Made by a program: the position numbers and the translations under genes
Shown: piece after piece, positions 12,782-63,885 of the stretch
How positions within the stretch are numbered: the stretch's first letter is position 1
How the letters are laid out: each line of letters begins with the position of its first letter
Notes under the pieces: generated by a model
What the model saw: the letters and a program-made list of their open reading frames with translations, nothing else
Databases searched by the model: none
What the model was told of the DNA's origin: nothing
Source of the DNA: Candidatus Roizmanbacteria bacterium RIFCSPLOWO2_01_FULL_35_13
GTDB lineage: Bacteria > Patescibacteriota > Microgenomatia > UBA1406 > GWC2-37-13
NCBI GenBank assembly: GCA_001789635.1
Contig: MGAF01000026.1
Location: 5,055-69,054 of the forward strand
Reading direction: 5' to 3'
DNA length: 64,000 bases

Positions 12782-12882
12782 AATTCCCTACGCTGACATT
12801 TGTCTTTCCTGATTTTGCCTGAGTGAATTGGAAGAAATTAAAGATCTCAATAACTTATAATTTATTACCGGGATTATTTTAT

Positions 12883-13239: not shown

Positions 13240-13243
13240 TAAT

Positions 13244-17197: not shown

Positions 17198-17617
17198 ATG
17201 TCTAAGGAAAAAATATTTTATTACGTCAAAATTTTAGCAATAATAGGCTTATTACTCTCAACATACCTTCTCTGGCAGCAATTTTTTCACCCGGCATTCC
17301 AACCCTGTAATATAAATAGTTGGATAAACTGTGACGCGGTAATTTCTGGACCTGTGGCAAAAACCTTAGGAATTCCGACACCACTGTACGGATTTATCGG
17401 GTATATTATTATTTTTTTTGCAGCATTATTCCGTAAAACAAAATTAATGTTGGGGATGGCTGGTTTTGGTTTGATTTTTTGTCTGTGGATTGCCTATCAG
17501 GAACTTTTCCTACTTAGGGTAATTTGCCCGGTTTGTATATCCTGCCAGATAGTTATGATTTCTATTTTTATACTTTCGCTAAAAGTAAGGAAAATTCCTA
17601 CGGATAACAGATTGTAA
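17198..17617 (+). CDS. vitamin K epoxide reductase (VKOR) family protein
   Basis: Four hydrophobic helices, a loop Cys pair (CNINSWINC) and an active-site CxxC (CPVC). Confidence 0.75.
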   Translation: MSKEKIFYYVKILAIIGLLLSTYLLWQQFFHPAFQPCNINSWINCDAVISGPVAKTLGIPTPLYGFIGYIIIFFAALFRKTKLMLGMAGFGLIFCLWIAYQELFLLRVICPVCISCQIVMISIFILSLKVRKIPTDNRL

Positions 17618-17636
17618 ACTCTGATAAAATAAATTG

Positions 17637-18188: not shown

Positions 18189-19499
18189 ATGCACGATATA
18201 AATGACAGTTTTGATATAAATCTGGACGAAGTTTCCAAAGTGGAGGGGGCTGCTTCTCTTGAAATAAAAGTAAGAAACAGAAAAATCGAGGATCTGAAAT
18301 TTTATATCTCCGAATGGAAGCGTTTCTATACCCAGGCGATTCAGGGAAAACCGGTAGTTGCAGCACCTCAGTTGGTAGCCAGAATTTGCGGAACCTGTTC
18401 CAATGCTCATCTTCTGTGTTCTATAAAAGCTATAGAAAATGCTTTTGGAATAATTCCGTCTCCTCAAACAATGCTTTTAAGAAAATTACTTTATTATGGT
18501 TTGATTATCAGGGACCACGGATTGCACCTTTATATTTTTTCTATGCCGGATCTGTTCGGTAAAAATTCCATACTTGATTTTGATGAAAACATTCCTGCGG
18601 AAAAAGAGCTTCTGGAAGAAACATTTTCGGTGAAAGAAGTGGGCAATCTGCTTTCGATTGTTGTTGGCGGCAGATCGGTTCATGCTCCAATGCCAACTAT
18701 CGGTGGATTTCTAAAATTACCTAAACTTGATGATCTTAAAAATCTTGTTCCAAAACTAAACGAAATCAGACCGAAAATTCTAAAATTGATAAAAATATTT
18801 GCCGAAGCCCCTTTGAATTTAAAAACTTCAGCAAAACTGAATTTCAGCAGTCTTGTTTCGCCGGACTTTTCTTTTCTTGAGGGAAAACTGAAAAATTCAA
18901 TAGGAGAGACGATGCTAACTAACGAACTGTCTAGCTATCTGGAAACAGTAATCATACCTTATTCGCATGCCCGCGGTTTTAAACTTCAGGGAAATCTGAT
19001 GATGGTGGGAGCTTTAGCAAGACTGAATTTGGCTAAGGATAATCTTCATTCTAAAACTAAACTGGACTCAGCCAAATATCTAAGTTTTTTTCCGTCAACC
19101 GATTTATTTCACAATAATTTAGCACAAGCAATAGAAATGCTTCATTCGGTTGATTCTTCAATTGATTTAATCCAGAGTCTGAGCATTATAAATGATGAAA
19201 AACCTCAAAAATTAATTCCCAAAAAATCAGTCGGTGTTGGAACAATTGAAGCTCCAAGAGGGACACTTTTTCATAAATACGAAATTGATGAACACGGAAC
19301 AATTAAAAAAGCCGAGATTATAGTCCCGACCGGTCAAAATCATGTACTTATGGAGAGAGGAATTTTTGAACAGACTAAAAAACTATTATTGGAAAAAGCG
19401 GATAAAGAAAAAATTATCTTTGAAGCAGAAAGACTGATCCGCGCTTTTGATCCCTGCATGTCCTGCGCCTCACACTTTTTGAAAGTTAAGTGGAAATAA
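18189..19499 (+). CDS. [NiFe]-hydrogenase large subunit
   Basis: N-terminal RICGTCSNAH (RxCGxCxxxH) and C-terminal DPCMSCASH (DPCxxCxxH), followed by a 7-aa tail. Confidence 0.85.
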   Translation: MHDINDSFDINLDEVSKVEGAASLEIKVRNRKIEDLKFYISEWKRFYTQAIQGKPVVAAPQLVARICGTCSNAHLLCSIKAIENAFGIIPSPQTMLLRKLLYYGLIIRDHGLHLYIFSMPDLFGKNSILDFDENIPAEKELLEETFSVKEVGNLLSIVVGGRSVHAPMPTIGGFLKLPKLDDLKNLVPKLNEIRPKILKLIKIFAEAPLNLKTSAKLNFSSLVSPDFSFLEGKLKNSIGETMLTNELSSYLETVIIPYSHARGFKLQGNLMMVGALARLNLAKDNLHSKTKLDSAKYLSFFPSTDLFHNNLAQAIEMLHSVDSSIDLIQSLSIINDEKPQKLIPKKSVGVGTIEAPRGTLFHKYEIDEHGTIKKAEIIVPTGQNHVLMERGIFEQTKKLLLEKADKEKIIFEAERLIRAFDPCMSCASHFLKVKWK

Positions 19500-38372: not shown

Positions 38373-41300
38373 ATGGGTGAACCTAACTTTAACCAGTCTG
38401 GAGAAATTACCCAACCTAATTTAGGCAAACCGGAAAACAAATTCTGGATAAATTCAAAAGGTGAAAAGATAATTGCAGAAAAAGGCAAGGTACCTACATT
38501 AGTGGATGTTTTTAATCACCGCTATCAACAGTATGAGCAGAAAATGAAAAAGTTGTATGAAAAAGCAGAACTTGCTAAGCAAAATCCAAATGATCCTGAA
38601 AAACAATTAACTCAAAGGGAATTTCTTCAGCTTTTTAAATTTGAAAATACAAAAGCCGGTAAAAGAGAAGTTCTGGATAAAAATAAAAAGATAATCTCTC
38701 TCCCTTTAATTGATCCTAATAGTCCGGATCCGAGCAACCCTTTAAAAATTGAGTCTCAAGAAGGCCCGGCAGCGGATGGGTTAATAGATTTTCTTAAAAC
38801 TGAAATAACACCCACTCAAAAAGATATACAAAAAGTAATCGAAGATCTTACATTTCTTGATCAAAATACCGAAGATTTTAATAAATTACACGCTGATAAA
38901 GTCAAAGACCCTAAATTCTATAAAGCAAGATTAGATTTTGAGGCTCATGCTATTTCAGAATTTCGAGCACGTATGGGTTTGTCACCCGATAAAAATCTTG
39001 ATTGGGAGTTGGCAGAAAGAATCTTAAGTGAAAGAAAAGAATTGACATTTAAAGTCGAAAGAAATGAGCCTCAAAAAGTAGAAGTTATCCAAGCAAAAGA
39101 GATCCCAAAGGTAGAGAAATTAACCAAGTCTGATGTCCGAAAAGTATTCCAGGAATCTTTTGCAGAATACAGCAAATCGATGGAGAGGTTACTTAAGGAA
39201 CCTGATCCTGGTAGGTTAACGGCTGATGAAAGAAAAAGGATTGAAGATTATCAGGAAACTAAAAAAGCATGGGAGGATCTGCAAAATAACAAAAGAAAAG
39301 AAATTACCTGGAAAGACAAAAGAGGGATTGATCATAAAACTACCCAAAACATTCCCATAGGCGGAATGATAGAAAATTTAAGGGACGAGATAGTTAATCT
39401 TCAACTTAAAGTAAATGAAATAGGCAGTAAGGATGGTAAAGAACTGGATAGGCTTAAAAAACAAATAAAGAAACATGAAAAGAATTTGTCGATTCTTGAA
39501 GAGAGCAGTATTCCTGCAAGCAGAGTTAAGGGATCTGAAAAATATACTGTCACAAATCCGAATGACCCACAGGAGCATCTGAATATTTTGCTGAAAAATC
39601 AGAGAGCTTTAAAAGGTAAAAAAGTATTAATCCTGTCGGAAGAAGATACAGCGGTAAAAACCGCAGAAAAAAGATCTGCAGCTTCAAAAAGAGTTAAACC
39701 TGCCCCATCCGGTCAAGGAGTTGGTCTTCCGGCACCAATAACATCGGATGCAGCAAGACAACAGTTAGAAGATATTTCCGGGAAACCACCTTCAACAACT
39801 GAATCAAGTGAAGACTTACCTCCAACAGTTGAAACCGGTAAACCCGCTCCGATGCCAGAGGTACCTGAGTTAAAAACGCTGGCAAAAAAAATCAGAGTGT
39901 CGTTTGTAGCGGATGATGTTACATCAGAACAGAATGTAGCCCAGGTTGCACAGCATCTCCGAGCAGGGGATAAACCGACTTTTACAGGAAAAGATAAATG
40001 GCTGATGCCATTGCTTCATCCTGTGACTTATATTAAAAACGCCATACAAAATACGTATCTTGATAACTCTTTTGATCACCGGGAAACTCTATTCGTCATG
40101 CAGATGACGCAAGTTGGGCGAAAGCTTGCAGGGCTTGACGCAAGCGTATCACTTAATCTCAAAAAGGAAGTTGTCCAGGAAGCTAAAAATAAAGGGAAAG
40201 AAATAGTTAAAAAAGCAACAGGTTGGCAAGGGTTTAAGTTTGGAGTAAGGAATTTCTTTGCATCGTTCCTTGCGCCTGTTCAAACAGCCGAGATGCAACA
40301 GGCTTTGCAATGGTTTGATCAAAATGGAAAACAAATGATTGAACAATCTAAACAGATAAGCATAGCAAGTCAGACTTCTTTAGCCGACAGATTTTCACTC
40401 GAGGGAAAAGACGAAAATATCATTTCAGAAAAATTGGGAGAGAAAAGATACAGCTTGAATACTTTGATTATCGATCCGACTTTGCAACAAACTATTCAAG
40501 GGCAACTGAAAGATTTTGTTAAAGTATACGCAACAACTAATCTGAGTGATGAGGATTTTATAAAAAAAGTTAACCTCTATTATCATTCGGATATCCTTAA
40601 AAAAATTCCACCGGAAAAGGTAAAGGAAATTGACGGTTTACAAATTTCGCAAAATCTGCTTCGGGTTGCACAGGAGATGAAGCGTGAACCGGATGTCGGA
40701 CGAGATGAAAAGAAAACTTTGTATCAAAGATACCAGGATGAAAAAGCCTGGGATGATTTGGAATTGGATATTGTTGTTGGTAAAGGTAGAGCAGAGGCAG
40801 TTAGAGGGGATATTGAACTTTCAAGATCGGAAAGAAATTTGTTGAGATTGATTCAAAAGCGGGATTATCGGACTGATCCGAATGTTAAAGCAGGTGCAAT
40901 CTATGATGAGACTGCGATTAATTCCCAACTAGGTTACACGGCATTATATACGGCTTCATTTTTAACAGGATATGGTATTGGAGCCGCTAAATTCGGCAGA
41001 GGTACGATTCTAAAATTTTTTCATTTTAATCCGCTTATAACAGGAATTGCAGCAACCGGACTAACGGCAGCAGCCAGGGAAGGCGCAATTGGATCGTACA
41101 AGGGAAAGTTGTATGGATTGGGAGGAAGGACAGCCAAGGAATATGAGCAGATATCGAGAGAAACTGCACAGGGAAGAGAGGCAATAGCAGGTGCAAATCG
41201 CCGTAAAGAGTTTGAATCGGCATTGATGCAGCAAAAATCGGCAACAGAGTTGACTGAGGCTATTAATAGTTTTGTAAATAAGGAAGGAGAGTTGAACGAG

Positions 41301-44300
41301 CAGGATCGGAAAAGTTTGGTTATGGCAATAGCCCATGTCAAAGCAAGAATGAAATTGACCGACACGTCTTCAATCAAGGAAAAGGGATTGTTAAAAGTCA
41401 GAATGACGCAAAATCTGATCGGTTATACCGAAGATAAAAGAACCGAGGAGTTTACGCAGTTAACTTCTTCTATTTTACAAGGATTAAACAGGCTAGGAGA
41501 TTCTCCCGAAGCGTTGGATCTTGATCGAGCGCAGTCATTGATGGAAGCCCAATTAACAGTTGGAAGCGCCAGACAAAAAGTGGAGATGGAAGTAGCACAG
41601 AGATTGAAGATTAACTCTGCTGAAGCGCATGAACTGACGGATAAATACCTTGAAACATTAAATCTGCACATAGGTGAAGATGAAAAAAATGTCTCGATGA
41701 ACAGAGCGGCAAATAATTTAGCAAAATTATCCTGGAAACGATTTGGCACTTCTCTTGCAACCACTGCGATTGCCGCACCGATTCTTGGTCTTGAAGCAAA
41801 ATTATTGTATGAAGGAGCTGCAAATGTTTTTGGTACAGGTGTGGACATAGGTCAGACTATAGTAACCGGAGAACCGGCAGGAATTATTAAAGATGTAACT
41901 ACCTGGAAACAGGATTGGGATAATGTGATGGATGGCGAGATACCGATGAAGATCGATTCTACAACAGGTCAAGTTGTTTCGGATTTGTCACCACTTGAAG
42001 CGACTTTAATAAAAGTCGAAAATTATTTTGAGCCTCCGATTTTAGAAAAAGGGCATGACGTGAATATTGACGGTGTTACCGTAAGATTGCCAGAGCATTG
42101 GGAATATCGGCCGGTTGATCTGGTGGGTAATGACGGAGTTTCTGACCATGATGTAATCGTTGATCTGCGGGAAAGAGAGGTAATAGTGGATCTGACAGGT
42201 CTGACAGTTTACGCAAAGGATACGGATGGTGATGGAGTACAAGAGCTTGTTGCCTATGATAAAAGTGGACAGACAGTTACTGATTTTTTTGAGAGTCATG
42301 GAGTGAATGTCAAAGTCGGACCGGTTGTAACTCAGACTGATATTGGCACAAGAGAGATGGGAGAAACCAAAGAGTCAGTCCATGTAGTTGAACAAACTGA
42401 AACGATTGCAGCATTCGGACCCGAAGGAATTTTCACCAATCATAGTACTGAAATCGGTGGTGGAGGATCTTTGGGTAGAGAATGGGTAAGTACTTTAAAG
42501 GATTATAAAAATCCATTATATATGTGGAAAGATGCAGAAGGTAATCCGGTTGTTGACTTTACCGGCATGGCAGGCAGCGAATATAAAAATACCGGGGTTG
42601 ATATAAATCATCCGGTTGGTGTTGATAACTTTTTAGGAAAATTACAGGAAAGAACCGGGGAAGCTGTCGGTCCCGGTGAACATTTTGGAGTTGTATTTTC
42701 AACCGCCAATGCTCATGAAGGAATCGCAGTTGTAGACGGTGATAATAATGGTCTTATTGAATTAAAGGAAGGATCTGCAGATTATTCGATGAAGTGGGAT
42801 GGTGCACACTATGTTAAAACCCAGTTAGACCTGGAAGATCTGGGGAAATCACTAGCTGCAAATGACGAATGGAATAATCTTCCTCCCGGGAGAGTATATT
42901 TGGAAAATAAAGAATTGGTTAATATGGATGGGTTAAGTCAGGTAAATTTGCTGGCGCCGGGACAATCGGGATATGGAACGATTGAGGTAGCAAAGTTTGG
43001 AGACAATATGACAGAAGATTTTAACGGAGTTCATCCTACTCTTAAGGTATATTCAACGGTTCGGGGAACAGGATCACTACATGATGTTGTTGAAACTGAG
43101 CAAGTTGAAGTCAGGGACGATGATGATGCTGGCGAAAGAATACCGGTTGAAGTCGAAAAGAAAACCACAACATTTATCTTAGAACCCAGTAATAAAGATG
43201 AGACTGGTGAAGGTAGTCTTGATCTTGATTTAAGAAAGATAGGAAAAGAAATCAGTGAAGGAGTCGGTGAATGGGTTGATCGGAATGAAGGCGCAATTCC
43301 CTTGATTCCAATTGTTTCAAGACAGAATATCGAGCAGAGTATTGGCGCTGCTGTGGCTGTAGCGCGAAGTGCTACAGCGGAACAACCGCCAGCAGGCGGA
43401 ATTGATACGGAAAAAGATAAAAAAGAAAAAGCTAGATGGTTGGCTGCACAAAGGGAATTGGAACAAGATCTTCAAAAAGTAAAAGAAGATCCTACAAAGA
43501 AAGCGGATTTTAAAGATAAATGGGGTGTTTCAAGCACAGATGCTGAAGAAGATAAAAAAAGAACTACTGACGCTTATTATGTAATCAGCCATTTTGGCAA
43601 AGATGTAAAAGACAAATATGAAGCTGAAGCATTAAAAGAGGAATCAATCGAGGATCAAGCATTTATGCAAAGCATGGCCCAAATACTCGATCAAAATAAG
43701 ACTGAAATGGCAAATGTTGCCCAAAAAATTGAAACTGAGAATTTAGACGACTCAACTCCCGAAGGGAGAACTGAAATTGCAGAGATTGTCGAAACGGAAT
43801 CAGGTAAGAAAATCAAGAAAGAAAACTTTATACATTATCTTGAAATTCAAAATAAAATAAAACAAAAAGCCATCGAAAGAAGAGCGGCCGAGGAAAAACA
43901 GATGACAGAGCAGGTTAAAAAATGGGAAACTGAACCGGTCGAATCCGCAGAGTCTTCAGTAAAGCCTCCGCAAGAAGATGAAGAAAAAAAGTCAGATGAA
44001 GTTTTGAAAAAAGAGTATTTTGATCGTAAAAATAAAGCCTTAAGTGATTTAGCAGACGTTAAGAATAATACGATGGGTATAAAAGAATTTGAAGATAAGT
44101 GGGGTATTCAGGGGCAATTTGAAATTTTATCCAAGGCAAATGATGATCCTCGATCATTTGTTAAAAGCATATTTATAGCAAGAGAACTAAAAAGACGGTT
44201 CGGTCGCGATCAACAGGATTTAGTCGAGAGTCAAATAGTTGAACAATTACCCAATGAAAGAAAAAATGCATATATAAAAGTAGAAGAATTATTTAATAAT

Positions 44301-45857
44301 AATCAAAATACTTTTAATTCGGCTATTACCAAATATAAAGAAGAAGTCCGGAAAAGAGGAGAATCTTTAACTTCAATTGAACGTGAGTTGATTTATACAA
44401 AAACATTTCTAGAATTTTTTAAGGATGAATTATCTGAGCAGGAAATTTTGGAACATGATAGAGTTTCAGGTTTGATAATGGAAGCTAATGTAAAAAAGCA
44501 AGTAGAGATAATGAGCGAGTTGAATGGAAAAATTGATCAGTGGGAAGCTGAATCCGCAGAATCTTCAGTGACTCCGCCAAAAGTAGATAAAGAGAAATTA
44601 AAAGAAAAAATTAGAATAGTCAATCGTGATGTGTTTGAAAAAGCAGGAAAAAGGAGTAAAGAAGAGATGACTAAATTAGTTGACGAAGTTTCTAAGGCCC
44701 ATTATGAAATGCTTGTCCAGGGTAAGGGAAAAATAGGAAACACAATTGATGAAACAGAGAAAAAAGGTTATGAAAAAATAGTTTGTGAAGGATTTGTGAC
44801 ATATATTCCAAAAGGCGCAGGAGAGTTAGTTGTTGTTGGTGATTTGCATGGTGATTTTGCAGCTTTCGAAAAAATAATAAATAAAAATCAATTTGTAGAG
44901 AATATGGAGTCTGACTCTCCTTCAAAGGTAATTGTTTTTGAAGGTGATTATCTTGATCGCGGTGAAAAAGACGTACAACTAATGGAGGCTTTACTTGAGC
45001 TTAAGAAAAGATATCCAAATAATGTGGTTTTAATGAAAGCAGATCATGAAGTACGAAAAGGAGTAGTTAGCGATCAAACATATTTTGATAAGACAAAAAA
45101 ACAATACGGTGACGAAACGGTTTTTGATGAGTTGAATAATAAAATATTTAGTATTTTGCCTAGGGCCGTATTCTGTGGTAATGGGGTAGTTATGGCACAT
45201 GGTGGTCCTTTATATTACGATTTAGATTTAAGACAAATGGCGAGTCTTAGAGATAGTGGAGGAAATAATGTGGCTACTTCTGCTTTTGATGAGGTGATGA
45301 CCTGGGCAGATCCTCAACCAATGACAGATGCTGAAATTGATTTAATTCAAAAAGAAAGCCTCAAATATATAGAAGAGTTGGATAAGGCAATTCCTTTGGC
45401 ACAAGCTGCATCTGATAAAACTATAGATTTCCGCGGTCAAAAATGGGATCTAGATCACCTAGAAAGAATTAAGAAAAGAATTGAAACTGCCCCCAAAAAT
45501 GGATTTTGGTTTAATCCGAGAAGAGTTAATGTAAAAGGAAGAAAAGCAGATGTAATTGATGCGGCCTTGAATAATACAGTTATATATTCAGAACAAGGAT
45601 TAGAATATTTTTTAAATAAAGTTGGAGGTAAAGTATTAATTAGAGGTCATCAAGTAACAGAAAAAGTTAACGGTGGAAATCCTTTCTCAAAAAATATTTT
45701 GTGGACGATCCATTCAACAGGGGAAGGGAGCCCAGACAGTGCATATACAAGTCAGGATATGAGTGAGGAACTAAACCCAAGTTATGCAGTTTTTGACAGG
45801 AATGCAGATGTTGCTCTAATTGATCCGGCAAAGAATATAGTTCCAGTCTGGAATTGA
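38373..45857 (+). CDS. giant multidomain protein (2,494 aa) with a C-terminal PPP-family metallophosphatase domain
   Basis: Uninterrupted 7.5-kb ORF. C-terminal motifs GDLHG, GDYLDRG, ADHE (GNHE position), AHGG and RGH. Central hydrophobic hairpin. Confidence 0.85.
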   Translation: MGEPNFNQSGEITQPNLGKPENKFWINSKGEKIIAEKGKVPTLVDVFNHRYQQYEQKMKKLYEKAELAKQNPNDPEKQLTQREFLQLFKFENTKAGKREVLDKNKKIISLPLIDPNSPDPSNPLKIESQEGPAADGLIDFLKTEITPTQKDIQKVIEDLTFLDQNTEDFNKLHADKVKDPKFYKARLDFEAHAISEFRARMGLSPDKNLDWELAERILSERKELTFKVERNEPQKVEVIQAKEIPKVEKLTKSDVRKVFQESFAEYSKSMERLLKEPDPGRLTADERKRIEDYQETKKAWEDLQNNKRKEITWKDKRGIDHKTTQNIPIGGMIENLRDEIVNLQLKVNEIGSKDGKELDRLKKQIKKHEKNLSILEESSIPASRVKGSEKYTVTNPNDPQEHLNILLKNQRALKGKKVLILSEEDTAVKTAEKRSAASKRVKPAPSGQGVGLPAPITSDAARQQLEDISGKPPSTTESSEDLPPTVETGKPAPMPEVPELKTLAKKIRVSFVADDVTSEQNVAQVAQHLRAGDKPTFTGKDKWLMPLLHPVTYIKNAIQNTYLDNSFDHRETLFVMQMTQVGRKLAGLDASVSLNLKKEVVQEAKNKGKEIVKKATGWQGFKFGVRNFFASFLAPVQTAEMQQALQWFDQNGKQMIEQSKQISIASQTSLADRFSLEGKDENIISEKLGEKRYSLNTLIIDPTLQQTIQGQLKDFVKVYATTNLSDEDFIKKVNLYYHSDILKKIPPEKVKEIDGLQISQNLLRVAQEMKREPDVGRDEKKTLYQRYQDEKAWDDLELDIVVGKGRAEAVRGDIELSRSERNLLRLIQKRDYRTDPNVKAGAIYDETAINSQLGYTALYTASFLTGYGIGAAKFGRGTILKFFHFNPLITGIAATGLTAAAREGAIGSYKGKLYGLGGRTAKEYEQISRETAQGREAIAGANRRKEFESALMQQKSATELTEAINSFVNKEGELNEQDRKSLVMAIAHVKARMKLTDTSSIKEKGLLKVRMTQNLIGYTEDKRTEEFTQLTSSILQGLNRLGDSPEALDLDRAQSLMEAQLTVGSARQKVEMEVAQRLKINSAEAHELTDKYLETLNLHIGEDEKNVSMNRAANNLAKLSWKRFGTSLATTAIAAPILGLEAKLLYEGAANVFGTGVDIGQTIVTGEPAGIIKDVTTWKQDWDNVMDGEIPMKIDSTTGQVVSDLSPLEATLIKVENYFEPPILEKGHDVNIDGVTVRLPEHWEYRPVDLVGNDGVSDHDVIVDLREREVIVDLTGLTVYAKDTDGDGVQELVAYDKSGQTVTDFFESHGVNVKVGPVVTQTDIGTREMGETKESVHVVEQTETIAAFGPEGIFTNHSTEIGGGGSLGREWVSTLKDYKNPLYMWKDAEGNPVVDFTGMAGSEYKNTGVDINHPVGVDNFLGKLQERTGEAVGPGEHFGVVFSTANAHEGIAVVDGDNNGLIELKEGSADYSMKWDGAHYVKTQLDLEDLGKSLAANDEWNNLPPGRVYLENKELVNMDGLSQVNLLAPGQSGYGTIEVAKFGDNMTEDFNGVHPTLKVYSTVRGTGSLHDVVETEQVEVRDDDDAGERIPVEVEKKTTTFILEPSNKDETGEGSLDLDLRKIGKEISEGVGEWVDRNEGAIPLIPIVSRQNIEQSIGAAVAVARSATAEQPPAGGIDTEKDKKEKARWLAAQRELEQDLQKVKEDPTKKADFKDKWGVSSTDAEEDKKRTTDAYYVISHFGKDVKDKYEAEALKEESIEDQAFMQSMAQILDQNKTEMANVAQKIETENLDDSTPEGRTEIAEIVETESGKKIKKENFIHYLEIQNKIKQKAIERRAAEEKQMTEQVKKWETEPVESAESSVKPPQEDEEKKSDEVLKKEYFDRKNKALSDLADVKNNTMGIKEFEDKWGIQGQFEILSKANDDPRSFVKSIFIARELKRRFGRDQQDLVESQIVEQLPNERKNAYIKVEELFNNNQNTFNSAITKYKEEVRKRGESLTSIERELIYTKTFLEFFKDELSEQEILEHDRVSGLIMEANVKKQVEIMSELNGKIDQWEAESAESSVTPPKVDKEKLKEKIRIVNRDVFEKAGKRSKEEMTKLVDEVSKAHYEMLVQGKGKIGNTIDETEKKGYEKIVCEGFVTYIPKGAGELVVVGDLHGDFAAFEKIINKNQFVENMESDSPSKVIVFEGDYLDRGEKDVQLMEALLELKKRYPNNVVLMKADHEVRKGVVSDQTYFDKTKKQYGDETVFDELNNKIFSILPRAVFCGNGVVMAHGGPLYYDLDLRQMASLRDSGGNNVATSAFDEVMTWADPQPMTDAEIDLIQKESLKYIEELDKAIPLAQAASDKTIDFRGQKWDLDHLERIKKRIETAPKNGFWFNPRRVNVKGRKADVIDAALNNTVIYSEQGLEYFLNKVGGKVLIRGHQVTEKVNGGNPFSKNILWTIHSTGEGSPDSAYTSQDMSEELNPSYAVFDRNADVALIDPAKNIVPVWN

Positions 45858-49892: not shown

Positions 49893-52800
49893 CTATTTTT
49901 TATTTTCATCCGGTTTTTTTGCTTCAGATTCTTCTCCGGCTGGATTTTGAGCATTTTCCCTAGTTGGTTTGCTTTCGGCAGATTTTTCTTCCGGTTCTTT
50001 TATTTCCATTTCTTCTTTCATCTCCATAACTTTTTCCTGTTCTTCGGCTTTGGGCTTATCAACATCGATAAATTCTTCCTCTTTCTTTTCTTCGACTTCT
50101 TCTTTTATTTCCTGTTCTTTTGTCTGAAGCTCTTCGACTTCTTTGGCGGCTTCGAGTTTGGCTTTCAGATAGACCATTAATTGTTCACCCTTCAAATTAT
50201 TAATTAAGAATATGGGTAGAATATAACCGATATCATCCAATCCCTGTTGTTTTATTTCAGGAGAATCCGAAACTAGTTTATTAAGAACATTAGTAATAAA
50301 GACAACATCCTGGCCGACCCATTGATCCCTGGATTTGATGATATCGGAAACAGGCACCTCGCCTCTGACATACTGGTCTTTCCACATTTTTTTAACCTGT
50401 TCATACTCATCAAGCGAGACAGAGGCCGGAACGGAAATCATAGATTCGACGTGTTTTTCCGGCTCAGTCACCATCGGTATCTGGTTATTGACGATTTTTT
50501 GCAGATCTTTTTCTTTAATATTTTCTTTTTGCAGAATCTGTCTCACGGTATCTTTGGAAGTCTTGAGGTTATTGACTGCAGTATTGATAACCCTGGTAAC
50601 TTTTTCTTTCTCAATACCTGTTTGAGTTGAGATATTATTGATTGAAGTCGACATTGGCTGGTTGATATTTTCCGTAAAGACGTTGAGAATTTTAGTTACC
50701 TGGCCAGCCTGCAGATTAGTCTGTTGTTCCAGTTGTTTGATAAACGTGCGATCGCTTGAGATGCTTGATAATAAAGTTTTCATTACTATTGTTGTTTTTT
50801 CAACCGGAAGTCCTGACTGAGATGCAATCATATTAACTACAGTTTCTTTTTCCCCAGTGGATGTAGAAGGTATGGCAGATAGTGTTGTTTGTATAACTTC
50901 CCTGACCTTTTCTTTCGTAACTCCAGTTTGGGTTGAGATATTGTTTATAGATGTCTCAAGTGGCTGATTGAGATTTTGAGTGTAGGTATTCAGAATATTG
51001 CTAATCTGGCTTATAGGAAGATTAGTTTGTTTCTCAATTTGTTTGACAAAGGTCTGGCTCTTTGAAACGCTGTTGATCATTGACTGAGTAATTGGAGCTT
51101 CTCTAGTTAATGATGTGGCAACAGTTGAGAGGATTTTTTCAACCCGTTCTACCGTAACCTGTTCTTTAACAGCAATATTATTAACAAGTTGCGACTGTCT
51201 TAGGTTGTTAACTGCGGTATTTATTACTTCTCTGACCTTTTCTTTCTCAACTTTAGTTTGAGAAGCAATATTGTTTACAGAAGTTGTTATAGGTTGGTTG
51301 ATGTTTTGAGTAAAGCTGTTAAGAATTGTTTTTACCTGGCTTGCCGGCAGATTAGTCTGTTTTTCCAGCTCTTTGACAAATGTATTATCAGTGGAAGCGT
51401 TTGATAACAGGGTTTTTGTTATAGAATTTACCTTTTCTACCGGGATTCCTGTCTGAGTTGAAATTGAAGTTGTAACTGTTTCTTTTTCATGATCAGTAAC
51501 TGCCGTAGAAATTGAGGAGAGGATTTTTTCAACATTTTGCGTTGTAACCTGTTCTTTTGTAGCAATTTTGTCAACCAGCTGGGATTGGCGAACGACATTA
51601 GTTGTGTTTTGAATAATACTTGAGACTTTTTCTTTGGTAACACCTGTTTGATTGGCTACATTTTGCAGTATGTTAGATACCGGCTGGGACATATTCTGAC
51701 TGAAAGAATTGAGCACTGACTGTACTTTTGTCTGAGGAGTCTGGGTAATCTGGGAGATTGATTGTGTCATATTATTATTGTTGGACACAGACTGCATAAA
51801 GGAAGAAGTCACTGACTGGACTTTTTCGGTCGGAATATTTACTTTGACCGATACAAGATGGGTTACCGGAACAGATTGAGTTGTTGTCTTTAGCATCTCT
51901 TCCCGTCTCTGCAGCTGTTCGACTTTTGAAGTGGAAATGGAAGAAAGAACCTGTTTGGCGGTTTTATCCTCTTTAACTGCCCGGCTGAACAGTTCGGATC
52001 TGATATTCATATATTTTTGCCGTTCGGTCGGGGTCTCGGCCTTCATCGGATTCTGCAGGAAATTAATATTTTTAGTTATGGTTTCGTTATTCTGTTTATT
52101 AGTCTCGAATCTGGCTATATCAGTAAGTTTGGACGCTGAGAATTGCATTGAGCGTGTAATATCTTCGGTCCTGGTTCTTTTGATTTCTTCGGTTGTTTCA
52201 AGTTTTGTTACAGTCCGCATCCGGTCGTCTCTGGGAATCTGCATGGCTGTTCCTGTAGACAAACCTGAAGGAGCAGGGATAGGAACCGGTCCCGGGCCAA
52301 ACGGAGTCGATCCACCCCGCATTTGGTCGTACATCGATAACAAAATATTTTTGGTTGCATAGATTCCGTCACAGCAGTAATCCCTGAAGATTCTTAGCAG
52401 CCACCACGGGAATATTGTAACCGCCCAAAGCATGACTAGTGCAATTATGTATTCGGCATAAGTATCCGTGTAGTTAGATGAGTTTAAAAGATCCAATTTT
52501 TGTGCAGGGCCTCCATAAAGAATATTAATAGTAGTGGGATAGACAAAGCCTTCTATCTTGTTGGCGCGGGAAAAATCAAAATTATAGGGAATATGAGATG
52601 GAGAGCCCCAAATTGCAGCGAGTCCCCCCAGGAATAGTCCAAAAAGAGGACCGTAAAAAACCCACTGGAAAAAGACTCCGATCCAGATCCATCCGGCATT
52701 CCTGATAAAAACAAAAGGCATGAGCAGGGCCAAAAATGGTGAAACAAAAAGCAGCAGCCAGAGAACCACTTTTCTTAAAATAAACATGATGCCGACCATA

Positions 52801-53522
52801 TAATAGGTCATATTGGTGAAGTGGACCATAAATTTGGAGGTTTTAACTGAATCCAAAAGTTCGATATTCAGATTGCTGCAGCCTTTAAAAGTTTTATAAG
52901 CGGTTTCGCTGTCCAGAATTACGCTGCCTCCCTGAGAAGATAAAAAGAAAATATTAAAAAGATTTTTCACTCCGAGTCTTTCAATAAAAAACAACATCAT
53001 CGTGTCCGAGAGTTGTATTACCAGTAAGACTATACTTGCAGAAAATGTGACATATAAAAGAAGAAGACCGATTTTTAAAATAAGAGGCCAGACTTCAATT
53101 TTAAGATTAAAATTTGACCGTTGGCCGATAATAATTCCCAAACCAAAAATTGCAACAATTAAGATAAGAAAAAAGTAAACTATATTTCTGGCAAACGACC
53201 AGACAGATAAGATAACCGGATGATTATCAATAGACCGGTGGGTAAGAGTCCAGTATAAAAACTGCCGTGATCTTTCTCCGGCTTTTCCTAATGCTGTAAC
53301 ATCCGGATCGCTGACCCACAGATTCTGCGATTTATTTCTCTCCCAGTCTGCAAAACTGGCTGCGCAGGTATAGTTAATTCCGGTAATTAACGGGCACCAA
53401 GCCCCTAAACAGGGTTCATAGGCAGGAGTAGGAGTTGCTGGTATAGCTTGTGCCGATACAGGCCGTATCAGCGGAATAATAAGAAAAAAGAGGAAAATAA
53501 AAAGTAAAAGAATTTTTTTCAT
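49893..53522 (-). CDS. large polytopic membrane protein (1,209 aa) with a signal peptide, about 8 TM helices and a long repeat-rich tail
   Basis: Signal MKKILLLFIFLFFLIIPLIRPVSAQA, Trp-rich TM block, repeats, and a K/E-rich C-terminus. Confidence 0.8.
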   Translation of the reverse strand: MKKILLLFIFLFFLIIPLIRPVSAQAIPATPTPAYEPCLGAWCPLITGINYTCAASFADWERNKSQNLWVSDPDVTALGKAGERSRQFLYWTLTHRSIDNHPVILSVWSFARNIVYFFLILIVAIFGLGIIIGQRSNFNLKIEVWPLILKIGLLLLYVTFSASIVLLVIQLSDTMMLFFIERLGVKNLFNIFFLSSQGGSVILDSETAYKTFKGCSNLNIELLDSVKTSKFMVHFTNMTYYMVGIMFILRKVVLWLLLFVSPFLALLMPFVFIRNAGWIWIGVFFQWVFYGPLFGLFLGGLAAIWGSPSHIPYNFDFSRANKIEGFVYPTTINILYGGPAQKLDLLNSSNYTDTYAEYIIALVMLWAVTIFPWWLLRIFRDYCCDGIYATKNILLSMYDQMRGGSTPFGPGPVPIPAPSGLSTGTAMQIPRDDRMRTVTKLETTEEIKRTRTEDITRSMQFSASKLTDIARFETNKQNNETITKNINFLQNPMKAETPTERQKYMNIRSELFSRAVKEDKTAKQVLSSISTSKVEQLQRREEMLKTTTQSVPVTHLVSVKVNIPTEKVQSVTSSFMQSVSNNNNMTQSISQITQTPQTKVQSVLNSFSQNMSQPVSNILQNVANQTGVTKEKVSSIIQNTTNVVRQSQLVDKIATKEQVTTQNVEKILSSISTAVTDHEKETVTTSISTQTGIPVEKVNSITKTLLSNASTDNTFVKELEKQTNLPASQVKTILNSFTQNINQPITTSVNNIASQTKVEKEKVREVINTAVNNLRQSQLVNNIAVKEQVTVERVEKILSTVATSLTREAPITQSMINSVSKSQTFVKQIEKQTNLPISQISNILNTYTQNLNQPLETSINNISTQTGVTKEKVREVIQTTLSAIPSTSTGEKETVVNMIASQSGLPVEKTTIVMKTLLSSISSDRTFIKQLEQQTNLQAGQVTKILNVFTENINQPMSTSINNISTQTGIEKEKVTRVINTAVNNLKTSKDTVRQILQKENIKEKDLQKIVNNQIPMVTEPEKHVESMISVPASVSLDEYEQVKKMWKDQYVRGEVPVSDIIKSRDQWVGQDVVFITNVLNKLVSDSPEIKQQGLDDIGYILPIFLINNLKGEQLMVYLKAKLEAAKEVEELQTKEQEIKEEVEEKKEEEFIDVDKPKAEEQEKVMEMKEEMEIKEPEEKSAESKPTRENAQNPAGEESEAKKPDENKK
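50480..51900 (-). repeat. Nested coding repeats: about 14 copies of a ~27-aa unit organised in ~105-110-aa super-repeats
   Basis: The AGATTAGTYTGTT cores recur at about 50715, 51023 and 51350. Peptide units follow Q-T-G/N-x-x-x-E/Q-K/Q-V-x-x-[IV]-[IL]-N. Confidence 0.8.
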
Positions 53523-55375: not shown

Positions 55376-55605
55376 TGATTAGATTCTACGAACATCATAA
55401 AAGATCTTTAGTCAAAACACTTAGTTTTCGCATTCTGGTTATGTTTTTCGATTTTTTTATTATAGTAATAATTACCAAGCGTTATGACATAGCCTTAGGA
55501 GTTTTACTTTTTTCCAATTTTTCGAGCACCGTTTTGTATTTTTTCCACGAAAGAATCTGGAACAATATTAATTGGGGTAAACAAAATCAGATCAATACCC
55601 GGTAA
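55375..55605 (+). CDS. DUF2061-type small membrane protein
   Basis: KRSLVKTLSFRI...YFFHERIWNNINWG. TGATG overlap with the upstream gene. Confidence 0.65.
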   Translation: MIRFYEHHKRSLVKTLSFRILVMFFDFFIIVIITKRYDIALGVLLFSNFSSTVLYFFHERIWNNINWGKQNQINTR

Positions 55606-56326
55606 ATTTTTCTTTCCTAATTTTTAGAACGTCTATTCCCAAAGTTTTTAAAATATTATCCACAGCATCTACCATCAAAGGCGGACCAGCAATGTAAAAG
55701 ATTGACGATTTATAGCCTGGTATATTATTTATTATGAAATTTTTATTAATTCTGCCGGTTTTTCCTGGCCAGGGTAACTTTGAATTTTCCGGCTGAGTTA
55801 TAGTTTCAATAAATCTAAACCAGGATTTTTTAGAAGCGATTTCTTTTAATTCAGCCTGAAATACAATATCTTCCACAACACTTGATGAAACCAAAAGCGT
55901 AATTGGAATTTTGAGGTTTGAATCTGCGGTATAACGGACCATACAGCGAAAGGGAGTAATGCCAATACCTCCGGCAAGCAAAACATGAGGAATTGTTTCT
56001 TCGGGATTTAATATAAAAGATCCGTATGGCAAACTCATCTGAACTTTTGAATTTACTTTAAGATTCAACAAAGTTTGTTTAAAGTCGCTGTCACGGATCC
56101 GTACCGTAATCATGAGAAATTGCTTTTCCGATGGAGAAGAAGCAATTGAGAAAAATCTTCCGTTACCCCTGTCTGAGGATTGGGGTATACTCAGAAATAA
56201 TCGCAAAAACTGTCCTGGGTAAAAATCCAAGTCTCTGGGTCTTTCAAAATAAAAAGAATAGGTGTTAAGTGCGACATGTTCCTTTTTTAAAAGTTTTGTC
56301 TCAATTTTTCGAGCAATTATTGCCAT
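55592..56326 (-). CDS. FNR-like FAD/NAD(P)-binding oxidoreductase
   Basis: RFFSIASSP (RxYS-type FAD motif) and LLAGGIGITPF. Confidence 0.65.
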   Translation of the reverse strand: MAIIARKIETKLLKKEHVALNTYSFYFERPRDLDFYPGQFLRLFLSIPQSSDRGNGRFFSIASSPSEKQFLMITVRIRDSDFKQTLLNLKVNSKVQMSLPYGSFILNPEETIPHVLLAGGIGITPFRCMVRYTADSNLKIPITLLVSSSVVEDIVFQAELKEIASKKSWFRFIETITQPENSKLPWPGKTGRINKNFIINNIPGYKSSIFYIAGPPLMVDAVDNILKTLGIDVLKIRKEKFTGY

Positions 56327-56360
56327 GGTATAAATGTATATTATATAATTTTATCTGGAT

Positions 56361-57149
56361 ATGCTCCGCCTGTTTAAAACCCCAAAGATGCTGTTAGTTC
56401 TCACATTGCTTATAATTTCTGCAACCATATTTCTTAGACAACCATCCGTAGAGTTATTCATCCGTTTTGTTTTGACTCTTTTTATTGCCGTAGTCAGCGA
56501 TATACTTTTGGTCAGATTCAGAAAGATAGAATCTTTTTTTCCATCTGCCGCCATAGTCTCCGGGATAATTATTTTTTTACTATTACCTCCTGATGCATCC
56601 ATCTTAGAGCTATTCATAACGGTCCTCATTGCATTATCAGCGAAACAGTTTATCAGGATCAATAAAAAACATATATTCAATCCGGCGGTTTTTGGTTTAT
56701 TTGTAGGCGGATTGATATTTAATCATATTGTTTCCTGGTGGGGAGTTGCATGGCAACAACTGAAATTGAATAATATTCCGGCAATTATAAATTTTGCGAT
56801 TCTTCTATTACCATTTTATGTGTCTGCGATAAAGATGAGACGCTTAAAAATAATAGCCTCTTTTTTGTTAATATATAATTTATATAATTACTTTTTTGCC
56901 GGAGTTTTGACTATTTTTGACCCGACTGTTATATTTTTTTCTTTTGTGATGTTGCCTGAGCCCATGACAACTCCCAGTAATCATAAATCACAAATTATTT
57001 TTGGAATTTTTGTAGCTCTGTTTGCCATATTAGTATCATATCAATCTTTCATTTTTATACCCGACTCCTTAATCTTAGCTCTTTTGGTTGGTAACACAGT
57101 TTTTTTTAAATGGAGAAAGAATGAAGTTGTTTTGAAAGCAGGTAAATAG
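56361..57149 (+). CDS. RnfD/NqrB-family-like membrane protein
   Basis: PSAAIVSGIIIFLLLPP ... HIFNPAVFG ... PEPMTTP. Confidence 0.5.
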   Translation: MLRLFKTPKMLLVLTLLIISATIFLRQPSVELFIRFVLTLFIAVVSDILLVRFRKIESFFPSAAIVSGIIIFLLLPPDASILELFITVLIALSAKQFIRINKKHIFNPAVFGLFVGGLIFNHIVSWWGVAWQQLKLNNIPAIINFAILLLPFYVSAIKMRRLKIIASFLLIYNLYNYFFAGVLTIFDPTVIFFSFVMLPEPMTTPSNHKSQIIFGIFVALFAILVSYQSFIFIPDSLILALLVGNTVFFKWRKNEVVLKAGK

Positions 57150-57193
57150 GTATAATTGAATATGCAAAATAATGAAAGGCGGGTGATTAATTT

Positions 57194-57676
57194 ATGAATA
57201 ATAAAGCGCTTTTATTTTTAATAGGAGTTTTACTTCTGGGTGGTGTATTTGTTTTGGCGAAAAATCAGAATAAGACTGCTCCTGCAGTACAAAATCAGGA
57301 AGACGCACTTGAGGCAGGAGATGAAGGAGTTAATGAAGAGCAGTTGGAAGATGGAATCGAAGGGGTAGAAAATGATGGTGGGACAGTAGAGGAAGGCGAT
57401 GAGGCAGAAAGCGTTAAAGTTTCGGTAACAGACGCAGGTTTTGAACCGCAAACAGTTAATGTAAAAGTTGGATCTAAGGTTGTTTGGACTAATAATACTC
57501 AGGCAACTGCCGATGTCAGTTCAGCGCAGCATCCAACCCATCTGGTTTACCCGCCGCTTAATTTAGGAAATTTTGAACCCGAAGAAAAAGTAAGATTGGT
57601 TTTTGAAGAAGCCGGAACCTATAAATATCATGATCATTTGAATCCGAGCATGTTTGGTACAGTGGTGGTGGAGTAA
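57194..57676 (+). CDS. membrane-anchored cupredoxin-fold protein
   Basis: TM helix, acidic linker, and C-terminal GTYKYHDHLNPSMFGTVVV. Confidence 0.45.
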   Translation: MNNKALLFLIGVLLLGGVFVLAKNQNKTAPAVQNQEDALEAGDEGVNEEQLEDGIEGVENDGGTVEEGDEAESVKVSVTDAGFEPQTVNVKVGSKVVWTNNTQATADVSSAQHPTHLVYPPLNLGNFEPEEKVRLVFEEAGTYKYHDHLNPSMFGTVVVE

Positions 57677-61764: not shown

Positions 61765-62339
61765 ACTAAAATACTTTCTATGTCTGACAATATTTTATCA
61801 AATTTAGCATAACCACTTCTTTTATTAAAATGTCCGGCTCCAGAAATGAAAGTTAGTTGGATTCCGAGCCTTTTTGCTATTTCTTTGCCATTATCTAAAC
61901 AGGTATAGGGATCGTTATCTGAATGGTATACGAAAAAATGCTGCGCATTTGATTTAATCTTTTTCCAATCGAATCCATAACCATGTGCAAATTTGAAACC
62001 AGATTCATAAAAAGTATAAGGTTTTATTCCAACTGAGCCGGAAACTATAAATGCCGCGAATACCGGCTTATCTAATTTTTCCAAGATGCGAAGTAAAAAC
62101 AGTCCTCCACGGCTGTGGCCAATAAAAACGGTATTTTCGTCAACAAGTTTTTTATGCTTATCCAATATTTTTAAACGTGCTTCCAGAGAATCGTTTTGCT
62201 GATTTGGGAATTGTGGAACAATTACGCTATTTCCTTTTATTTCAAGTTCTTGTTTTAGCCAAGGAAACCAATTTCCGAGAGGATTTCCGTCCGTACCATG
62301 AAGAATAAAAAAAGTTCTTTTCATGATCGAATTATACAT
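61761..62339 (-). CDS. YdeN/RBBP9-type serine hydrolase
   Basis: FILHGTDGNPLGNWFPWLK, GHSRGG, SDNDPY, GHF. Confidence 0.65.
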   Translation of the reverse strand: MYNSIMKRTFFILHGTDGNPLGNWFPWLKQELEIKGNSVIVPQFPNQQNDSLEARLKILDKHKKLVDENTVFIGHSRGGLFLLRILEKLDKPVFAAFIVSGSVGIKPYTFYESGFKFAHGYGFDWKKIKSNAQHFFVYHSDNDPYTCLDNGKEIAKRLGIQLTFISGAGHFNKRSGYAKFDKILSDIESILV

Positions 62340-63885
62340 CAGTACCTACTGCTTCCGCAATATTTTTAAATCCGTCCTTCTGCAATTTGTCAATTAATCC
62401 AAGATTAATTTGGGGAATTAATTGAGGGCCTTGATAGATCATACCCGTAATTAACTGAATTAATGAAGCGCCAAGCCTGATTTTAGTATAGGCATCTTCA
62501 GCTGAGAAAATTCCGCCACAGCCGATGATGACTAATTTTTTACCGAAGTTTTTATAAGCCAATTTAATTAATTCGTTGGAGCGGTTAAAAGTCGGTTTAC
62601 CGCTGAAATAGCCTACTTTCCATATTTTGACCTCTTCTTTTACTAACGTCGGATCGTTTTTGTTTTTCTGCAGATTGCCGATTATGACACCGGTTAATTT
62701 ATATTCTGAAATTACCTTTAGAATATTTAGTGTTTGATTATTGGATAATTCGATCGGCATTTTGATGAAGATAGGCTTTTTTATTCTTAATTTTTGCACC
62801 GCCGATAAAAGTTGAGAAAGATTACGAAGTGGATAAAAACTGATTTCACCACCATGAATAATATTTGGGCAACTAATATTTAGTTCATAATAACTATTAT
62901 TGACCTTAGATCTCTCGAATTTTTTAAAGGCCGTGACAATATCTTCAATACTTTTATCCAAAGTTGATAATTTTATGGAGTTTGTTCTCCCTATACTAAT
63001 TCCGATCAGGATATCAAACCCTTCGACACCGCTCAGGGCAAGTCTTTTAATAATTGAATCGGCGCCTGGATTCTTAAATCCTTTATTTACCATTAGTGAT
63101 TTTGACATTGGAAGACGACCCAGTCTTGGTTTGGGATTGCCTTCATAAGGCATATTAGTTATCGTTCCAATTGTTTGAAAACCAAAACCTAATGCAGAAG
63201 AAATTAAGGGGAGCTTTGCTTCGTAATCAAATCCGGCTGCCAACCCGACAGGTAATTCGAAAGTTAAACCGGCGATTTTTTGCTGCAAACTTTTGTCTTT
63301 ATAGCGCGTAATTCTATTGACTAAATATTTTACCGGAGTGAGCTTCCCCAATAATTCGCCGTTGTCCAACATCCTTTCGTGAATAAATTCCGGATCTATT
63401 AGAAAAAATATTTTTCGCAAGAAATTTTGATAAGAAAAACCAAAAAAATAAAACAAAATCTCTCTTTTTTCTTTTCGCATGAAAATCATGACTAAGCTAA
63501 AAATAATAAAGCTGATAATCGCTGAAAAAGTGCAATAAAGACAAAGACTTTTAATAATAATTAACTGAAGATACATGAAGTAGATGGAAGCAAAGACTCC
63601 TATGGTTGACTGCAAGATAACTAAATAACTAAATATTTTACTTTTCGTTTTTAAAGAGATTAAACTGATAAAAAATAATATTAAGTAATGGATTAATCCA
63701 ATCAAGGCCAAAGGAATTCCAAAAAAATACGAGTAGTGACTGCCTAATACTTTTCTGCAGTCAATAAAAACATTGGTTGAGCAGGGCGGAATTGTTTTCG
63801 CGTAATGTTCATACGTCAGGTATCCGGAATCAATTATTCCTAATAAAGCGAGAAATAAAATTAAAAATAATATTTTTTGTTTCAT
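62332..63885 (-). CDS. pyrD: VKOR domain fused to dihydroorotate dehydrogenase
   Basis: The N-terminal ~140 aa have 4 TM helices, a loop Cys pair (CSTNVFIDC) and CLYC. The C-terminal part has LAAGFDYEAK, GNPKPRLGRL, ELNISCPN and GCGGIFSAEDAY. Confidence 0.8.
   Translation of the reverse strand: MKQKILFLILFLALLGIIDSGYLTYEHYAKTIPPCSTNVFIDCRKVLGSHYSYFFGIPLALIGLIHYLILFFISLISLKTKSKIFSYLVILQSTIGVFASIYFMYLQLIIIKSLCLYCTFSAIISFIIFSLVMIFMRKEKREILFYFFGFSYQNFLRKIFFLIDPEFIHERMLDNGELLGKLTPVKYLVNRITRYKDKSLQQKIAGLTFELPVGLAAGFDYEAKLPLISSALGFGFQTIGTITNMPYEGNPKPRLGRLPMSKSLMVNKGFKNPGADSIIKRLALSGVEGFDILIGISIGRTNSIKLSTLDKSIEDIVTAFKKFERSKVNNSYYELNISCPNIIHGGEISFYPLRNLSQLLSAVQKLRIKKPIFIKMPIELSNNQTLNILKVISEYKLTGVIIGNLQKNKNDPTLVKEEVKIWKVGYFSGKPTFNRSNELIKLAYKNFGKKLVIIGCGGIFSAEDAYTKIRLGASLIQLITGMIYQGPQLIPQINLGLIDKLQKDGFKNIAEAVGTDV

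Follow-up and report, generated by a model that had tools for sequence, protein, structure and literature searches.

A VKOR domain joined to a dihydroorotate dehydrogenase scaffold

The window analysed here is a 64,000-nt stretch of contig MGAF01000026.1 from Candidatus Roizmanbacteria bacterium RIFCSPLOWO2_01_FULL_35_13, and coordinates are positions in this window unless another contig is named. Its minus strand encodes, at 62332..63885, a protein of 517 residues (P0001) in which a vitamin K epoxide reductase (VKOR) domain is joined to a dihydroorotate dehydrogenase (DHODH)-like flavoenzyme. Such a fusion had been proposed in a first-pass annotation of the DNA, and the gene is indeed a single open reading frame (ORF), with neither a stop codon nor a frameshift within 62332-63885. 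It is built from two known families and carries the database annotation "dihydroorotate dehydrogenase (quinone)", under which it is widespread in Microgenomates. No published description of a VKOR-DHODH fusion was found in the literature.

The N-terminal part (residues 1-136, 63478..63885, minus strand like all parts of the gene) is a VKOR module, as originally read. It matches PF07884 over residues 8-132 (E 8e-28), scoring 97.7 bits where the cut-off is 27.5 and 101 bits when the genome was searched, and it aligns to the Synechococcus VKOR structures 4nv2 and 3kp9 (E 4e-9; residues 21-141 of 4nv2), the CXXC motif included. Four transmembrane (TM) helices at residues 2-29, 59-80, 83-111 and 116-135 are modelled by AlphaFold2 with pLDDT above 90. 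A loop cysteine pair, C35 and C43, lies at 63757..63783, and the CXXC motif C115-L-Y-C118 (63532..63543) stands at the start of the fourth TM helix, where it aligns with the CMYC of Synechococcus VKOR.

The remainder of the protein is a class-2-like DHODH. A basic linker (RKEKRE) and the class-2 N-terminal helices with the quinone-site residue His169 occupy residues 137-198 (63292..63477), followed by a flavin mononucleotide (FMN)-binding TIM barrel at residues 199-517 (62335..63291), which matches DHO_dh (PF01180) over residues 200-501 (E 3.7e-56). The motifs LAAGFDYEAK, GNPKPRLGRL and ELNISCPN are all present. NCBIfam models of class-2 quinone-dependent DHODH span residues 150-516, and two of them exceed their curated cut-offs (NF003652 with 285.2 against 267 bits, TIGR01036 with 232.6 against 200 bits); for eight other class-2 equivalogs the score is under the cut-off. 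The class-1 models also stay under theirs (NF002702 with 64 against 301 bits, TIGR01037 with 84 against 270 bits). The AlphaFold2 model of the full chain, built on 119 homologues (mean pLDDT 94, pTM 0.91), places the four TM helices first, then a helix at residues 137-160, two more helices and the TIM barrel. In Foldseek, the C-terminal ~370 residues match class-2 DHODHs, among them the full-length M. tuberculosis structure 8ofw (TMt 0.94, rmsd 1.8 Å).

According to the first-pass annotation, the VKOR domain occupies the place of the short helical domain that forms the quinone tunnel in class-2 enzymes. The alignments show otherwise: residues ~150-198 correspond to the N-terminal domain in the class-2 enzymes of M. 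tuberculosis and H. pylori, and the Foldseek match includes this domain. The tunnel helices are thus kept, together with His169 and an invariant Arg257, and the VKOR domain has been added upstream of them. From the four-helix VKOR topology, known by homology, and from the basic segments MKQK, KTKSK and RKEKRE (positive-inside rule), the flavin domain should be cytoplasmic. A literally shared quinone pocket, as had been suggested, is then unlikely, as, by homology to solved VKORs, the quinone/CXXC site of VKOR should face the outside of the membrane, and the DHODH tunnel its cytoplasmic side. A functional link between the halves is supported by an independent VKOR adjacency described below. When the two parts were folded as separate chains (1-145 and 146-517), the complex score was 0.01, a value that we did not use either way.

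Conservation of both halves and a remodelled active site

In a word-indexed protein search, over 100 matches had a length of ~515 residues, all with PF07884 and PF01180; those named were from Candidatus Roizmanbacteria or Woesebacteria. Each of 119 full-length homologues carries the two domains in one chain, which rules out an assembly or frameshift artefact. The fusion was found in 17 of 251 Microgenomatia genomes, and it is also present in other classes of the phylum. The genomes are metagenome-assembled (MAGs) and mutually related, and counts given here and below describe the searched set and are not statistics.

In all 119 homologues, the four VKOR cysteines (C35, C43, C115 and C118) are invariant, as are H169, R257, Y221, N267, K268, N336, N341, K375 and N404 of the flavin part. 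Judged by this pattern, both halves are under selection.

The catalytic-base position of the flavin domain holds a cysteine, as the first-pass annotation had noticed. Cys339 (codon TGC, 62869..62871) is kept in 118 of the 119 fused homologues, and in alignments to PDB entries its motif NISCPN sits on NVSSPN of the M. tuberculosis and NLSSPN of the H. pylori class-2 enzyme, so that it replaces the catalytic serine of N-x-S-S-P-N. A second replacement affects the lysine of AAGxDK (E. coli Lys66, human Lys100), which is Tyr221 in all 119 homologues (63223..63225). A lysine appears instead at position 268, where other class-2 enzymes have tyrosine or methionine, and may compensate for the loss; the two positions have in effect swapped lysine and tyrosine. 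Lys268 lies with Asn267 (63082..63087) in a substrate loop (VNKGF versus NRMGF) that is one residue shorter, and the first of the substrate asparagines is accordingly displaced by one residue, while N336, N341 and N404 align. A further change in the pocket is NLQ in place of NTT. The human equivalents of residues 221 and 268, Lys100 and Tyr147, are both active-site residues (PMC12197698). The alignments thus allow that the substrate pocket may have been rebuilt by the Lys/Tyr swap, not destroyed.

Origin of the cysteine and of the fusion

The class-2-like sequences of Microgenomatia fall into three motif groups, named here after the residues at the catalytic-base and AAGxDK positions: canonical S/K (AAGFDK, NRMGF, NVSSPN, NTT), C/K (AAGFDK, VVxYGL, NISCPN, NLT) and C/Y (AAGFDY, VNKGF, ELNISCPN, NLQ). 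The pair of residues at 221 and 268 follows the groups strictly, canonical enzymes carrying K/(M or Y), all 12 C/K sequences K/Y and all 37 C/Y sequences Y/K, and the same rule holds in other phyla among the matches listed. In a quick maximum-likelihood tree (IQ-TREE), S/K is separate, C/K is basal and paraphyletic, and C/Y, which is marked by Tyr221, forms a nested clade (SH-aLRT 99). Fused and unfused proteins interleave within the C/Y clade, and well-supported branches require the fusion to have been gained or lost three or more times. From the topology of the tree, the change from serine to cysteine came first, that from lysine to tyrosine second, and the VKOR fusion last.

Cys339 as a result of the fusion was considered and rejected, as the change from serine maps to the base of a larger, unfused clade. 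Cysteine-type unfused relatives occur, among the matches listed, in Saccharibacteria, Parcubacteria, Berkelbacteria and DPANN archaea; the replacement thus recurs without VKOR in bacteria of the candidate phyla radiation (CPR) and in DPANN, and also in some Flavobacteriaceae and in anaerobic fungi (PMC8520639). C/K enzymes are the only DHODH in three pathway-bearing genomes (G030, G227 and G240), and a cysteine base is therefore compatible with real DHODH function.

Two side observations concern these relatives. In Flavobacteriaceae, five proteins (L131, L135, L154, L156 and L179) are canonical class-2 DHODHs by their AAGFDK and INRMGFNN motifs and read NVSCPN; in these aerobic Bacteroidota, the serine of the catalytic base has become cysteine. 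The cysteine-type class-2-like homologues of DPANN (L106, L109, L114, L117, L118 and L120) come from Pacearchaeota, Woesearchaeota and Nanoarchaeota records; L106 is of the C/Y type, and the group suggests CPR-DPANN exchange.

Pyrimidine pathway genes in fusion carriers

The fusion had been thought to couple pyrimidine synthesis to disulfide chemistry, and gene content does not bear this out. No DHODH other than the fusion was found in its own genome (1.45 Mb, 89.7% complete), a second, weak DHO_dh match being DusB. Neither pyrB nor pyrC was found in this genome, and all phosphoribosyltransferase matches to pyrE were sub-threshold (28 versus 107 bits). The sole match to the OMPdecase family (PF00215), a candidate for pyrF, was rejected because it is hexulose-6-phosphate synthase of the ribulose monophosphate pathway (G000:C19:34420-35001; L008:4397-5074), which could be mistaken for pyrF by Pfam alone. 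No pyrB, pyrE or pyrF was found in a genome of the same genus either (G219, 98% complete), and the three genes were all missing from the matches in 10 of the 17 fusion genomes.

The fusion genomes with pyrB are three in number, and each has another DHODH. It is a class-1B PyrD in G203 and a divergent DHODH-like protein in G069, each encoded within the pyr gene cluster, and in G206 a divergent DHODH-like protein is encoded on a contig different from those of pyrB and pyrE/F. G232 and G124 have pyrE and pyrF as well as a class-1B PyrD, which PyrK adjoins in G232. Overall, pyrE is about as frequent in fusion carriers as in the background (7/17 versus 97/251). As a positive control, a pyrE match was present in 35 of 35 genomes with a class-1B-type PyrD.

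Some other DHO_dh proteins came up in the same search. Frames of ~535 residues (families f9 and f26, in G218, G138, G054, G024 and G172) had been candidates for fusions beside pyrE and were set aside, as they have no VKOR part. The G218 protein (L051, G218:C5) tests as a single-chain class-1B PyrD-PyrK fusion, and the ~535-residue proteins L051, L053, L056 and L057 adjoin pyrE in G218, G138 and G024. The divergent DHODH-like protein (355-380 residues, partial PF01180 match of 55-83 bits; L095 in G069:C2, L096 in G206:C5, L094 in G009:C5, L097 and L098) lies near pyrB, pyrC or pyrE in many-gene pyr regions of G069, G009 and G014, and may be the working DHODH of many Microgenomatia. Eleven genomes (G232, G124, G167, G154, G176, G029, G133, G149 and others) have class-1B PyrD and pyrE, with no pyrB found; it looks as if their pathway is shortened and starts at dihydroorotate, or as if a divergent pyrB was missed.

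Quinone and respiratory genes

The search for quinone biosynthesis gave a negative result, with no menA match in 37 C/Y-clade genomes, fused or unfused, the genome of the window included. Cytochrome bd and heme-copper oxidase (COX1) likewise had no match in these 37 genomes. The four UbiA-family matches of the own genome were considered as MenA or UbiA and rejected, three being decaprenyl-phosphate phosphoribosyltransferase-like, that is, cell-wall-type enzymes, and one a weak generic prenyltransferase.

One other group of redox genes lies in the window at 55592-57676. Besides a further cupredoxin-like protein, it encodes a 244-aa FNR-like FAD/NAD-binding protein and a single RnfD/NqrB-like membrane protein of 262 aa, an incomplete Rnf/Nqr-type set. 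The FNR-like gene (55592-56326) was also tried as PyrK and rejected.

Linkage to VKOR and thiol chemistry

Fifteen of the 17 fusion genomes encode no VKOR other than the fused one; the exceptions are the own genome and G203, each with a second. A connection between VKOR and the C/Y flavoenzyme is also seen without fusion. In genus g22 (G007 and G089), a stand-alone VKOR gene comes immediately after an unfused C/Y gene; a third instance, in the unpublished genome G068, was left out of account. As this order is opposite to that in the fusion, the adjacency is an independent event. In G191, a VKOR gene lies 3 kb upstream of an unfused C/Y gene, and G061 has a split or frameshifted form. VKOR was found in ~16 of 23 genomes with an unfused C/Y enzyme versus ~69 of 211 without a C/Y enzyme.

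ORF clustering of 37 loci found no gene family common beyond close kin. Downstream genes for a serine hydrolase and an aldehyde dehydrogenase were common to one other locus alone, consistent with a same-genus genome.

CPR bacteria have been proposed to use MdbA-like proteins together with VKOR (PMC6744442). The own genome has two DsbA/MdbA-like Thioredoxin_4 genes, located elsewhere in the genome, and this pair fits the proposed MdbA-VKOR system (PMC6744442).

The stand-alone VKOR paralogue of the own genome (139 aa, 17198..17617, plus strand; PF07884, E 6.5e-25) lies beside a hydrogenase, as the first-pass annotation had stated. It ends 16 nt upstream of a NiFe-hydrogenase small-subunit gene (Oxidored_q6, 17634-18104), which is followed by the large-subunit gene (NiFeSe_Hases, 18189-19499), both on the plus strand and identified by Pfam. 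In another family, represented by four genomes (G062, G135, G164 and G104), VKOR lies 2.3-2.8 kb from a hydrogenase on the same strand. In Microgenomatia, cytoplasmic redox enzymes may repeatedly have VKOR as their membrane partner.

Proposed electron flow

The coupling of VKOR to the flavoenzyme is probably real, though it does not involve pyrimidine synthesis: rather than making pyrimidines, the flavin half probably serves to handle electrons from VKOR. Because no de novo pyrimidine pathway was found in the own genome, and neither quinone synthesis nor a quinol oxidase in the C/Y-clade genomes, we do not regard the flavin domain as a pathway DHODH. With no oxidase and no other evident quinone enzyme in the genomes searched, turnover needs one half to oxidise what the other reduces. 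To our knowledge, every characterised VKOR or DsbB is a quinone reducer, and flow from quinol to FMN and on to a soluble acceptor is therefore favoured. Quinone use is inferred, and the direction of flow and the acceptor are arrived at by elimination. The reading that we prefer, although tentatively, is a two-part redox module whose halves share a scavenged quinone and in which the flavin half is VKOR's electron outlet.

According to this proposal, the VKOR half would take electrons from extracytoplasmic DsbA/MdbA-type thiol oxidoreductases via its two cysteine pairs and reduce a membrane quinone. After the fourth TM helix the chain would be cytoplasmic and continue into the class-2-type FMN domain, with its amphipathic tunnel helices and quinone-site histidine and arginine. 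This domain would exchange electrons with the same small quinone pool, presumably scavenged from a host, re-oxidising the quinol made by VKOR and passing electrons via FMN to a soluble cytoplasmic acceptor. Candidate acceptors would be a fumarate-like enoate, free flavin or O2, and Cys339 would serve as proton donor, as in class-1A enzymes. A thiol base suits enoate reduction, and class-1A DHODHs reduce fumarate at the orotate site. The search of the own genome yielded a single gene of the fumarate-lyase family, for argininosuccinate lyase, which is a possible, if weak, candidate for the source of fumarate. In its most specific form, the proposal has the fusion generate disulfides as a complete unit in cells that lack a respiratory chain, with VKOR oxidising exported thiols, a captive scavenged quinone carrying the electrons through the membrane and the DHODH scaffold acting as a quinol:enoate (fumarate-type) or quinol:flavin reductase; this form we regard as doubtful.

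Several observations weigh against the redox-module reading. By sequence, the protein still exceeds two NCBIfam cut-offs for class-2 DHODH, and the Lys/Tyr swap may preserve the dihydroorotate/orotate pocket. Flow from quinol to FMN reverses the normal class-2 direction, and the source of the quinone is presumed to be scavenging. The genomic association is loose in both directions, as VKOR was not seen in 7 of the 23 genomes with an unfused C/Y enzyme and 69 genomes encode VKOR but no C/Y enzyme, so that neither partner strictly needs the other. In two fusion genomes (G096 and G233), pyrE and pyrF are present and the fusion is the only DHODH, and it may have real DHODH activity there. Finally, the absences were scored in MAGs, and genomes that are related do not provide independent samples.

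Several of these points would be expected if the protein were an ordinary quinone-dependent DHODH, with VKOR as its membrane anchor, the halves independently reducing the same quinone, and a role in the synthesis of UMP, possibly from dihydroorotate or carbamoyl-aspartate of a host. Such an enzyme would also fit the retained class-2 fold, FMN and quinone-site residues and three of four asparagines, with a lysine possibly re-supplied by K268, as well as the sister C/K clade, which serves as sole DHODH in pathway-bearing genomes. Its layout would resemble that of mitochondrial DHODH, where a single TM anchor sits at the place of VKOR and precedes helices alpha1-alpha2. Orotate could, however, not be processed further in the own genome or in the 10 of 17 carriers from which pyrE and pyrF are missing, and dihydroorotate would have no source, as pyrB was found in none of these genomes and the own genome yielded no pyrC. 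Carriers that do have pyrB always have a second DHODH, and the fusion follows the background frequency of pyrE, in contrast to class-1B PyrD with its 35 of 35. Moreover, two quinone reducers without an oxidiser cannot turn over. We therefore consider an ordinary DHODH unlikely.

The need for one half to oxidise the other's product, given that no oxidase was found in the C/Y-clade genomes, would equally be satisfied by flow in the opposite sense, with a cytoplasmic reductant oxidised at FMN and electrons passing via quinone and the VKOR cysteines to external disulfides, as a DsbD/CcdA-like reducing or isomerising route or as an electron sink. This would keep the normal class-2 direction from FMNH2 to quinone and is compatible with the conservation of all four VKOR cysteines. 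A VKOR or DsbB that works as a net reductase is not known, however, and by established redox potentials the transfer from quinol to disulfide should be unfavourable for menaquinone-type carriers. The genome already has DsbD-type reductive transporters (11972-12781 and 15912-16934), and in the 15 carriers with the fused VKOR as sole VKOR, the DsbA/MdbA-like oxidases need an oxidant. Reverse coupling thus appears distinctly unlikely. Quite improbable is a VKOR that is merely a membrane anchor, or a neutral fusion of functionally independent halves, as might be argued from the repeated gain or loss of the fusion among close relatives and from the lack of a conserved gene neighbourhood among the 37 loci, given the four redox cysteines invariant in 119 of 119 homologues, the fused VKOR as sole VKOR of most carriers, the independent adjacency with opposite gene order, and the enrichment of VKOR with the unfused C/Y enzyme.

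Comparison with known systems

The fusion shares the four-helix core, the loop cysteine pair and the CXXC motif with bacterial VKORs, such as the Synechococcus VKOR-thioredoxin protein (3KP9/4NV2) and the M. tuberculosis and Actinomyces oris enzymes that re-oxidise DsbA/MdbA, and in both cases the two termini of the VKOR core are cytoplasmic. In both, VKOR likely acts as the quinone reductase that generates disulfides for MdbA-like proteins, a role proposed for CPR (PMC6744442). The partners differ, with a cytoplasmic FMN enzyme directly after the fourth TM helix here and an extracytoplasmic thioredoxin-like domain attached via a fifth TM helix in Synechococcus. Unlike in the hosts of these VKORs, no quinone synthesis and no respiratory chain were found in the C/Y-clade genomes.

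Class-2 PyrD enzymes (E. coli 1f76, M. tuberculosis 8ofw, H. pylori 6b8s, human 1d3g) resemble the fusion in their fold with tunnel helices, in their FMN motifs, in the quinone-site histidine and arginine and in a second lysine (K375). They differ from it by having serine instead of cysteine, the AAGxDK lysine instead of tyrosine, no lysine in the neighbouring loop, an asparagine loop longer by one residue, and NTT instead of NLQ; the fusion, in addition, has VKOR attached and no pyrimidine pathway around it.

The cysteine base has two precedents. Class-II DHODs with cysteine from Sch. japonicus, Dekkera and Neocallimastigomycetes are respiration-independent and can use free flavins (PMC8520639). 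Like the fusion, they combine a class-2 scaffold and a cysteine base in non-respiring organisms or conditions; unlike it, they are real pathway DHODHs without VKOR, and some lack the N-terminal domain (PMC8520639). Class-1A DHODHs (L. lactis PyrDa and the T. cruzi enzyme, dihydroorotate oxidases and fumarate reductases) also have an acid/base cysteine beside FMN and are a precedent for the reduction of an enoate, fumarate, at the orotate site. In contrast to the fusion, they are soluble, with no N-terminal extension and no quinone tunnel, and the similarity is only distant (64 bits versus a cut-off of 301).

The logic of draining thiol electrons to a terminal acceptor via flavin is shared with Ero1, with Erv/ALR and with the route from DsbB via menaquinone to fumarate reductase in anaerobic E. 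coli. The folds are unrelated, and by this analogy the fusion would hold both steps in one polypeptide, with quinone between them.

CPR/Patescibacteria make up a large part of bacterial diversity, and their pilins and surface proteins are folded with MdbA/VKOR-type systems. Together with the independent adjacency, the fusion is a concrete candidate for the outlet of VKOR electrons in CPR without a respiratory chain or quinone synthesis. Neither pyrimidine synthesis nor a quinone pool can be deduced from annotations as "dihydroorotate dehydrogenase (quinone)" in this group. The proteins also add a bacterial and archaeal counterpart to the cysteine-type class-II DHODs of anaerobic fungi. If the proposed flow is true, this would be the first DHODH-family enzyme with a physiological role outside pyrimidine metabolism, its quinone site run in reverse.

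Other genes in the window

A copper/thiol cluster occupies 11972-16934 on the plus strand. It encodes a DsbD_TM-like protein, a cupredoxin-like protein, a 23S-rRNA-IVP/bAvd-like protein, a copper-type P1B ATPase with HMA, and a DsbD_2-cupredoxin fusion. The window also contains two very large ORFs, of 2494 aa at 38373-45857 on the plus strand and of 1209 aa at 49893-53522 on the minus strand.

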